Of a DNA stretch of 64,000 bases, positions 52,402 through 54,697 are shown in pieces (within the stretch, counting starts at the first letter, position 1; each line of letters begins with the position of its first letter). The position numbers were made by a program, and so were the translations under genes. This DNA comes from Escherichia phage vB_EcoM_FB. The stretch lies in sequence record MT682711.1, one strand, 5' to 3'. The notes under the pieces were generated by a model, which did not search any database, was not told where the DNA came from, and saw nothing but the letters and a program-made list of their open reading frames with translations.

Positions 52402-53313
52402 TTATAGACCAGCTAACAGGTCGTCCAGACCATCGTCATCAGAAGGACTTACTGACGGCTCAGGAGTAGTGGAACGAGCTGGTGTAGACGGTTTGGAGTC
52501 ATATGCATCAAGGTCTGCACTGAATGCGTCCAGGTCATCACCAATCTTATCAGCGGCTGCAGAAGCTTTAGCGGCAGCACCACCAAGAGCAGCTGTACCA
52601 ACAACTTTCTTAAACTTGGCTTCGTTAGTTTCAAAGGATTTGAATTCGAGCAGTTTAGAAAGGTCGTGCATTTCTTCCATCAATTTAGCTTGGTAAGCTT
52701 CATCATTGATGTTAGGAATTTCAGACTGACCCATGAATTTGGAATCGTCATAGTTCTTGAAGTCGCCAACTTTCTTAGATTTCAGTACGAAGTTCGCACC
52801 ATCAAACGGACATGTTACGTCAACCGGCACTTCACCAATATCGGTATCAACTTCAACCATCTGGTTGATTTTATCCATAATTTTCTGACCGAAACGGAAT
52901 TTAAACACTTTACCTTCGTTAGCAGGCACTGCACTATCCTTAATAACAAGGATGTTAGCCCAGAAGGAAGTTTTACGTTTCATCAGTTTGTATTCGGCAT
53001 TATTAGTATTAAAAGTATCGTTCTGGTTCATGTATTTACATACAGGACATGAATCGAAATCACCATGAGTAGACGTACATGATTCGATATACCACTGACC
53101 ATTTTTCTTAAAACCATGGTTAACAAGCTTAACGAATGGGGATGGATTAGCTTCGTTTTTCGAAGGAAGGAATCGAATAACTGCGGTTCCTACGCCATTG
53201 TCATCTTTCAATTTCCATTCGGATTTGTCATCAGACGAGAAAGAAGAGCCACCTTTCATTGCAGACAGTTGAGCAGCAAGTTCAGCAGGATTACGGCGTT
53301 TAAACATAGACAT
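52402..53313 (-). CDS. 32: single-stranded DNA-binding protein gp32
   Basis: 303 aa; matches my recollection of T4 gp32 including C-terminal [11 protein letters not shown]; AAGGT SD. Confidence 0.95.
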
Positions 53314-53365
53314 ATTATTTACCTTATTTGATATATTTAATAAATTTATTAACAGTTGTTGTTAT
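53314..53365 (-). promoter_or_regulatory. A/U-rich leader of gene 32 (candidate gp32 autoregulatory operator)
   Basis: Minus-strand leader ...AAATTTATTAAATATATCAAATAAGGTAAATAATATG is almost pure A/U, as in the T4 gene 32 operator. Confidence 0.5.
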
Positions 53366-53411
53366 CACGTTTACCTTGATAACTAGGTTTTGAAGATGAA
53401 GTAATTATATA

Positions 53412-54029
53412 TCACTTCGAATAAAGCATTTTTAACTTAATGAATTCAGGGTCATCATTAGGAACCCAACCCTCATTAAATTGTTTAATCATACTCTTTG
53501 ATGTAGTTTCACTAACATTTATACCAGAGTTAATGAGACGCCTCCATCCACAAGCTCTTCCACTAGAATTAATTATACAATAATTAGTATAAGCAATATC
53601 ACTAAGCATCCAATCTAAAGGGTTTGCTCTAGAAGTTTTCCAAGGACGGTAATCGGGTTGATTCATATAGTTAGCAGCTTTCATATGGGCTCTAACTTCA
53701 GGACGTTTGGCTGGGTGAGTGCATCCAAAGACTCCAAATCCGCCACCGGCATAAACCAAATTAAAATAATCATCATTATCTCTAGCTTGAACTTCCAATT
53801 GTTCTGAACGTTCAATATTAATAACAATATCAAATGGCGTTATAGCCAAAATTTCAACAATAGGTTTTTCTTCTTCGATGGCCTCTTTAAATCTTGATTG
53901 CTCGCAAGAGGTCCAATACTCTTTACCTTTACAGTCAATAATCACGCCATTTTCAAAAGTACAATTAGTTTTAGAACCTATGTACGAAAACGGCTTAATA
54001 TTATTAGCCTGACGATTAAGCCAAGTCAT
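53412..54029 (-). CDS. hypothetical protein (205 aa) in the slot T4 uses for segG
   Basis: First ATG at 54029 (track ORF starts at TTG 54047); no SD; no confident domain match. Confidence 0.45.
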   Translation of the reverse strand: MTWLNRQANNIKPFSYIGSKTNCTFENGVIIDCKGKEYWTSCEQSRFKEAIEEEKPIVEILAITPFDIVINIERSEQLEVQARDNDDYFNLVYAGGGFGVFGCTHPAKRPEVRAHMKAANYMNQPDYRPWKTSRANPLDWMLSDIAYTNYCIINSSGRACGWRRLINSGINVSETTSKSMIKQFNEGWVPNDDPEFIKLKMLYSK

Positions 54030-54043
54030 TTTATAAACTATAT

Positions 54044-54697
54044 TCAAAATTTACAACCCTTAATTGTTTCAATGAACAATTTACGAGCCTCAATAGAATC
54101 TACTATAAGAATTTTTTTGTAAGCATTTAATTTAGTCGAATACTTAGACCACACTAAATCGTTAGTCTTTTCATCGTGCTTATCAATTATATCCATAAAT
54201 GAATCAAGCAAAATAAACGTTTCGAATGAAATAACATTCGATTGAAGGAGCTTAAAAATATAACTCGAGTTAACTTTTTTATTATAATCAAAAATTTCAG
54301 AAAGCGCTTGAACTTCCACTTTCTTACTAAAATAATAAATGTTTTTGATATCATCCTCAAAAACTTGTTTTATTCTTTTAAGTCTACCGATATATTCTCG
54401 GTAAAAGACTAAGGCGTCAGCATCACTGATGTCGCCAATCCATGCGTCTTGGTTAGCTACCAAGTTACTCATGAATATAAGAGCAAGCTCTTTCAAAGTG
54501 TATTTATCACTCAATTTCTCAAAGAAATATTTGTCACGACGTTTTTGATAAGCCGTATCAGAGATTCGCATGACCCAGTTGTATTTGATAACGTCGTATT
54601 TGGCGTTGAAATGATGCTTTAACATCAAATATAGGGAATATACACTTTTGCCGTTCACCATACGGTTATTGTTTGGTGGCATGCGAATCTTAATCAT
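54044..54697 (-). CDS. 59: helicase loader gp59
   Basis: 217 aa; near-identical to my recollection of T4 gp59 (GKSVY.LYLM.K, ANQDAWIGDISDADALVFYREYIGRLK). Confidence 0.9.
   Translation of the reverse strand: MIKIRMPPNNNRMVNGKSVYSLYLMLKHHFNAKYDVIKYNWVMRISDTAYQKRRDKYFFEKLSDKYTLKELALIFMSNLVANQDAWIGDISDADALVFYREYIGRLKRIKQVFEDDIKNIYYFSKKVEVQALSEIFDYNKKVNSSYIFKLLQSNVISFETFILLDSFMDIIDKHDEKTNDLVWSKYSTKLNAYKKILIVDSIEARKLFIETIKGCKF

Follow-up and report, generated by a model that had tools for sequence, protein, structure and literature searches.

A segG-type homing endonuclease gene at the gene 32/gene 59 junction of Escherichia phage vB_EcoM_FB and a candidate target and immunity codon in gene 32

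The closest described system to the locus studied here is segG (gp32.1) of phage T4, which lies between genes 32 and 59. T4 SegG is an active GIY-YIG enzyme with gene 32 as its target (PMC2988022), and it causes localised exclusion of the gene 32 markers of phage T2 (PMC2330249). The middle and late promoters of T4 gene 32 lie within segG (PMC2988022), and embedded promoters of this kind favour retention of an endonuclease gene. The structural reference for GIY-YIG homing enzymes is I-TevI, the endonuclease of the T4 td intron. In this report, we focused on a 64,000-nt window of Escherichia phage vB_EcoM_FB (MT682711.1) in which the same slot holds an ORF that an earlier sequence-only reading had described as a protein of 205 aa of no recognisable kind. 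Our analysis makes it very probable that this ORF is a free-standing gene for a GIY-YIG homing endonuclease and represents T4 segG in Dhakavirus as its Bp7-type orthologue; we propose the activity and target of the enzyme by analogy with T4. As a gene it is ordinary, its kind being already known and the very same protein being already annotated as a homing endonuclease. Its surroundings, including a gene 32 codon that may mark the target of the enzyme, are discussed below together with competing readings of the gene.

A SegG orthologue with a TTG start

The following features define the gene and its neighbours (all positions are those of the window).

53412..54047, minus strand: free-standing gene for a homing endonuclease of the SegG type, opening with TTG and comprising 211 codons and a stop, placed by the ORF list and alignment to T4 SegG
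54044..54047, minus strand: TTGA, the overlap of the segG TTG start with the gene 59 TGA stop, read from the sequence, a layout that suits translational coupling
54044-54697, minus strand: gene 59, followed by genes 33, dsbA and rnh in a T4-like replication cluster
52402-53313, minus strand: gene 32

The first finding in this study is that the similarity to T4 SegG runs over the full length of the protein. A tblastn search of 50,697 phage records gave 58.8% identity to T4 SegG over residues 1-208 (E 3e-74), and pairwise alignment with MAFFT gave 60%, with long identical blocks including MNIVY, YIGSK and YFNLVYAGGGFGV. Among protein families, phrog_7504, "homing endonuclease", is matched with E 3e-110 and a coverage of 202 of 205 residues. 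The annotation of the VR5 copy reads "similar to T4 SegG (gp32.1)", and seven more homologues with 48-75% identity occupy the same 59/32 slot in the same orientation. The sequence-only reading had rightly placed the ORF in the segG slot, flanked by gene 59 and gene 32, and had left open whether it was a mobile gene or some other cargo; confident, full-length homology to a Seg-family endonuclease was found, which, with the homing footprint, bears out the former and disposes of the idea of an unknown cargo gene. Judged by homology, position and homing footprint in the sequence, the ORF is a member of the SegG family.

The comparison with T4 highlights both similarities and differences. The two genes share slot and orientation, and encode proteins of 211 (window) and 210 aa (T4) that are 59-60% identical end to end and have in common MNIVY...YIGSK...ER..Q...YFNLVYAGGGFGV...THPAK...RPWKTSRAN...GWRR. 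In both phages, the gene 32 promoter (in the window, a promoter-like site) and pseudoknot abut the 3' end of segG, and the codon before gp32 Cys77 is a non-Asn codon. The main differences are that the window gene starts at a TTG overlapping the gene 59 stop, whereas the T4 ATG lies one base past that stop; that ~40% of residues differ; that the window protein has three extra C-terminal residues; and that the gp32 codon is TCA (Ser) in the window versus ACA (Thr) in T4.

Searches with Pfam, NCBIfam and PDB sequence profiles gave no meaningful match for the window protein, and Pfam PF01541 and PF19835 matched neither this protein nor any of 12 family members. T4 SegG itself, which has been characterised experimentally, has no Pfam match either, and the missing profile match is therefore a property of the whole family and no evidence for exclusion. 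The sole trace of an HNH motif or profile was a non-significant match (E 4.8) in one family member, no HNH fold came up in the fold search, and zinc finger, NUMOD and I-TevI_DNA-bd families gave no Pfam matches.

The ORF had seemed anonymous only because the true start, a TTG six codons further 5', had been overlooked. The minus-strand frame ending at 53412 contains an ATG at 54029, which yields 205 aa, and is open further 5' to a TTG at 54047, which yields 211 aa; the chance of a 211-codon open frame is ~2e-6, given a stop-trinucleotide frequency of 0.061 in the window. The frame, the ATG and its distance of 14 nt from the gene 59 stop (54046-54044) had thus been read correctly, but the true product is the 211-aa protein from the TTG. 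The six added codons encode MNIVYK, the window reading TTG AAT ATA GTT TAT AAA ATG (MNIVYK-M) where T4 segG begins ATG AAT ATA GTA TAT TGG (MNIVYW), with its ATG at the codon equivalent to the window TTG. TTGA and the NIVY codons are common to Bp7, AnYang, IME540, VR5 and NC-G, the last of which lacks the downstream ATG altogether. These codons are conserved at the protein level with a variable third position (GTT/GTA), and the seven more distant homologues all begin M(N/Q)(I/V)VY, one of them (L047) with a TTG start. Since the upstream codons are kept in every homologue, including the ATG-less NC-G, the real product has 211 aa. PSD2002 encodes an identical 211-aa protein annotated from the TTG as a homing endonuclease, and NC-G is likewise annotated from the TTG. 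The RefSeq models of Bp7 (L002:2114-2731) and AnYang (L004:1414-2031) use the internal ATG and give 205 aa without the MNIVYK strand. The TTG model should replace such internal-ATG models, which delete the first catalytic beta-strand.

The absence of a Shine-Dalgarno sequence noted earlier is accurate for the ATG. The TTG is preceded at 10 nt by a weak AAGG, part of a gene 59 3'-end haplotype missing in JS10. A TTG start with an AAGG this weak and distant suggests low expression, and the sequence layout is suited to coupling with gene 59 termination. No significant RNA structure sequestering the segG start region was found (z -1.3).

Homing footprint and regulatory elements at the junction

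Another finding of this study is that the junction carries the kind of scar expected of homing. Over 2.5 kb, the window is 99.2% identical to Bp7 (genus Dhakavirus). Within Dhakavirus, segG is carried by Bp7, AnYang, IME540, MX01, PSD2002, LHE83 and VR5; in JS10 and IME08, the slot is empty and genes 59 and 32 are separated by ~90 nt. Comparing the junction across relatives, which the sequence-only reading had proposed, sets the minimal insertion relative to JS10 at ~615 bp, from 54043, just past the gene 59 stop, to the MotA-box TGCTT at 53428. On both sides of it the divergence from empty-slot phages extends into the neighbouring genes.

53050..53313, minus strand: 5' 264 nt of gene 32, including codon 78, co-inherited with segG as the putative co-conversion tract
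54044..54185, minus strand: 3' 142 nt of gene 59, a flank divergent from empty-site phages, delimited by differences from JS10 and sliding identity

Nucleotides 1-264 of gene 32 show 38-40 differences from JS10 and IME08, most of them synonymous, whereas the 210 nt that follow show 3-5 (Fisher p 3e-6). Over the same 264 nt, the window has no differences from the carriers Bp7, AnYang and IME540. The last 142 nt of gene 59 show 22 differences from JS10, against four in the preceding 272 nt. Flank divergence from the empty-slot phages is 14-15%, versus ~2% further out, and the divergent block of ~1.1 kb (~53050-54185) is 100% common to the segG-carrying phages. As a sequence pattern, this block is what homing co-conversion would leave, that is, a homing signature. 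The comparison of carriers with empty sites offers a clean natural co-conversion block that contains both a regulatory RNA and coding sequence.

Two further features of the neighbouring genes were observed. Relative to JS10, IME08, T4 and T2, gene 32 is longer by two codons at its 5' end (53308-53313, minus strand; ATG TCT before the ATG of MFKR) in the window, VR5, NC-G and 04086. In gene 59, nt 33-117 (54581-54665, minus strand) set the window and Bp7 apart, with 15-20% divergence from every other Dhakavirus examined. This patch adjoins the 59/33 junction, at which AnYang and IME540 encode a further GIY-YIG endonuclease whose DNA-binding domain is of the I-TevI type (Pfam matches); it may represent another homing scar, or else a patch conferring immunity.

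Two candidate regulatory elements lie at or beyond the 3' end of segG.

53404..53431, minus strand: T4 middle-promoter-like site, MotA box AAATGCTTTA, 12 nt, TATAAT, a pattern match only
53361..53388, minus strand: H-type pseudoknot of the gene 32 mRNA, gp32 translational operator, ACCU-A-GUUAUCA-AGGU-AAACG-UGAUAAC, identified by covariation

The promoter-like site, found by matching the T4 middle and late consensus patterns by hand and to be read as a pattern match only, overlaps the last segG codons and the stop, and would drive gene 32. The homologous MotA box of JS10 is found immediately behind the gene 59 stop. It thus appears that the segG frame continues into promoter sequence of the recipient, and this would account for the extra C-terminal residues. 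A scan for sigma-70 promoters showed no enrichment over shuffles. The pseudoknot has 11 pairs, and across 10 variants (T4, T2, the window and others) all 110 of 110 cells are standard pairs, with compensatory changes in seven of the 11 pairs and only 25-50% pairing in slid controls. It was not found in the leaders of JS10, IME08 and NC-G, and Rfam gave no match over 53200-54200. The window-type leader occurs in 13 phage records only, and in each of them (13/13) the slot is occupied by an endonuclease gene. Compared with shuffles, the complete leader of 125 nt shows the better folding (z -3.5). An 8-bp hairpin (GAAGUGAU-AUAUA-AUUACUUC) at 53398-53418 on the minus strand spans the segG stop and the -10 box and is kept in VR5; on read-through transcripts it could serve in processing or attenuation.

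The slot is also home to a second type of endonuclease, present in NC-G (L006:1381-2010), 04086 (L012:666-1295) and LQ5 (L013:666-1295). This enzyme shares with the window protein the slot, the TTGA overlap and a SegG-like N-terminal part of ~60 aa (NIVYW...YIGSK.NC...KEYWSSC.Q.RF), whereas the remainder is unrelated and identity overall is ~30%. It is accompanied by the pseudoknot-type leader in 04086 and LQ5 and by a JS10-type leader in NC-G, combinations that rule out a strict linkage of the pseudoknot-type leader to segG. The occurrence of this endonuclease beside either leader type indicates repeated recombination at a hot spot. The sequence-only reading had called the junction such a hot spot, in keeping with a slot that is empty, filled with segG or filled with another endonuclease among Dhakaviruses. 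In a T4-like IMG/VR contig (L041), segG matches T4 SegG at 95% over only 165 aa and its first 54 aa resemble the NC-G-type N terminus (69%), which suggests from the sequence that this copy is chimeric or frameshifted.

The gp32 codon before Cys77

One position in gene 32 separates loci with a SegG-type gene from nearly all others.

53080-53082, minus strand: codon directly before the zinc ligand Cys77 of gp32, codon 78 in the window (TCA, Ser) and codon 76 in T4

We surveyed 54 loci: 32 IMG/VR contigs found via gp32, 12 reference loci including the window, and 10 contigs with SegG homologues (48-75% identity; 12 were retrieved, two of which end before the codon). The codon encodes Ser or Thr (TCA, ACA or ACG) in all 19 SegG-type loci and Asn (AAC or AAT) in 34 of the 35 loci without a SegG-type gene, among them the three carriers of the NC-G-type enzyme. 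Because these three retain the Asn codon, the NC-G-type enzyme presumably has another target. The sole exception, a T2-like IMG/VR 59/32 contig (L043), lacks segG and has the T4-type ACA (Thr), a state that could have arisen by conversion of the marker alone, segG not being transferred, or by a later loss of segG. Around the codon, WYIE-x-C remains conserved even where gp32 identity is as low as 56%, and the co-conversion block of the window ends ~30 nt past codon 78.

From this distribution, we infer that the codon before Cys77 is a candidate for a position within the SegG recognition or cleavage site that gives self-immunity. This proposal does not draw on the T2 site cleaved by SegG, which, at a presumed 332 bp from the insertion site, would coincide with this same codon (99-nt T2 leader plus ~231 nt). 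The Ser/Thr codon could be a linked hitch-hiker instead of the immunity determinant, since the segG-carrying lineages are not fully independent. Put more generally, there is about an even chance that SegG enzymes of at least nine lineages recognise the highly conserved WYIE-N-C sequence of gene 32 (TGGTAYATYGAAAAYTG), that carriers are immune through a single Asn-to-Ser/Thr change and that homing in Dhakavirus perhaps also imported the T4-type pseudoknot operator. An imported pseudoknot would have changed the translational autoregulation of gp32 in the recipient. The Ser/Thr-versus-Asn codon is a directly testable prediction of both the SegG target and the immunity determinant.

By analogy with T4, the gene would act as follows. 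segG would be translated at a low level from the polycistronic gene 59 message and, in a mixed infection, the helical C-terminal domain of its product would bind gene 32 of a segG-less relative, in which the catalytic domain would then make a double-strand break. Repair from the segG genome would copy the 5' end of gene 32, the leader and segG into the recipient. The phage's own genome would be shielded by its gene 32 substitutions, of which the Asn-to-Ser change before Cys77 (53080-53082) is the likeliest to matter.

The same nuclease might be kept mainly for competition or defence, as a weapon by which the gene 32 alleles of related phages in the same cell are excluded, and not as a purely selfish element. 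We consider this possible but somewhat unlikely. It agrees with the localised T2 gene 32 marker exclusion caused by T4 SegG (PMC2330249) and with the Thr codon of the segG-less L043, as marker conversion without gene transfer would produce; however, its mechanism is that of homing itself, and the two accounts differ in selective rationale alone, which makes them indistinguishable from sequence.

Domains, fold and selection

The protein divides into two predicted domains joined by a glycine-rich segment.

53751..54047, minus strand: catalytic GIY-YIG domain at the N terminus (residues 1-99), with Y5, Y22, R52, E79 and N96 as proposed catalytic residues
53724..53765, minus strand: FNLVYAGGGFGVFG (residues 95-108), where the catalytic domain passes into the linker, near-identical in T4 SegG and all homologues
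53415..53702, minus strand: helical C-terminal domain (residues 116-211), presumed to bind DNA

Structure prediction, also proposed by the sequence-only reading, gave an AlphaFold model with a mean pLDDT of 82 (11 homologues), consisting of an N-terminal alpha/beta domain, a low-confidence segment and a helical C-terminal domain. In the model, residues 1-99 are arranged as beta-beta-(hairpin)-alpha-beta-alpha, and residues 100-108, between the two domains, have a pLDDT below 50 (43). Alignment and model place I3-V4-Y5 on strand 2-8 and Y22-I23-G24 on strand 21-26. The GIY-YIG signature that had been reported missing is therefore present, its absence having been an artefact of the truncated start: the FSYIGSK string, correctly spotted, is the YIG half of the motif (residues 22-24), and MNIVYK holds the GIY half (residues 3-5). 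The motif is a variant, with IVY in place of GIY and 17 residues from Tyr to Tyr. The usual Tyr-to-Tyr spacing in GIY-YIG enzymes is ~10 residues. Y22-I23-G24, E79, R80, Q83 and N96 are invariant in the family alignment, and R52 nearly so. Y5 is conserved in every full-length member and falls below the 90% mark because two alignment rows are truncated at the N terminus.

R52, E79 and N96 sit in the expected helices and loop of the model, as proposed counterparts of I-TevI R27, E75 and N90. A non-significant hhalign comparison with I-TevI (E 0.07), taken as a pointer only, sets E79 on E75 and N96 on N90, and puts YFNLVYAGGGFGVFGCTHPAK, part of the glycine-rich stretch, opposite I-TevI YNIADATFGDTCSTHPLK. 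The Foldseek match is weak (E 0.8). The prediction for the N-terminal domain is a fold like that of the I-TevI catalytic domain, in which the putative Tyr/Tyr/Arg/Glu/Asn set is present, and on the strength of the modelled fold and motif residues the protein is a member of the GIY-YIG superfamily that its Pfam profile leaves unmatched. There are also clear differences: I-TevI is intron-encoded whereas the window gene is free-standing, sequence similarity between the two is non-significant and, unlike I-TevI, the window protein has a beta-hairpin insertion between YIG and the Arg helix.

Comparison with the VR5 copy by the Nei-Gojobori method (dN/dS 0.106, dS 0.86) shows, at the level of codon substitution, that the window segG is under purifying selection. 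Taken separately, the catalytic half has a ratio of 0.09 and the C-terminal half one of 0.11; dN is higher in the latter, the presumed DNA-binding half (0.12), than in the former (0.06). The earlier suggestion of a degenerate gene thus finds no visible sign in the window, where the frame is intact.

These values also bear on the reading in which segG is a decaying or inactive remnant, kept only for the promoter and operator of gene 32 embedded in it, its nuclease silenced by the ATG-to-TTG change or by use of the internal ATG with loss of the first beta-strand. The TTG where T4 has ATG, the 205-aa RefSeq form in Bp7 and AnYang, the promoter-like site overlapping the segG 3' end and the retention of endonuclease genes favoured by embedded promoters (PMC2988022) are all compatible with such a remnant, but we regard it as very improbable: dN/dS is low overall and in the catalytic half, every proposed catalytic residue is kept, the frame is intact in all carriers, the NIVY codons 5' of the ATG are conserved as protein, NC-G and L047 also use TTG, and the immunity-type gene 32 codon is maintained.

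As for the glycine-rich stretch FNLVYAGGGFGVFG, the sequence-only reading was right about the string and mistaken in likening it to a nucleotide- or SAM-binding loop, for it is conserved in T4 SegG and forms a low-confidence linker after the catalytic Asn; being both kept in T4 SegG and predicted to be disordered, the glycine run marks the junction of catalytic domain and linker. An unrelated cargo gene, for instance one whose product binds a nucleotide or SAM through GGGFGVFG in the role of a GxGxxG loop, can accordingly be dismissed almost outright: GFGVFG does fit GxGxxG literally and the Pfam search found no family, but full-length SegG homology already refutes it, the stretch is shared with a characterised nuclease and lies disordered between domains (pLDDT 43) with no beta-alpha-beta Rossmann unit, and nucleotide-binding folds are absent from the top matches of the fold search, which are GIY-YIG nucleases and HTH domains.
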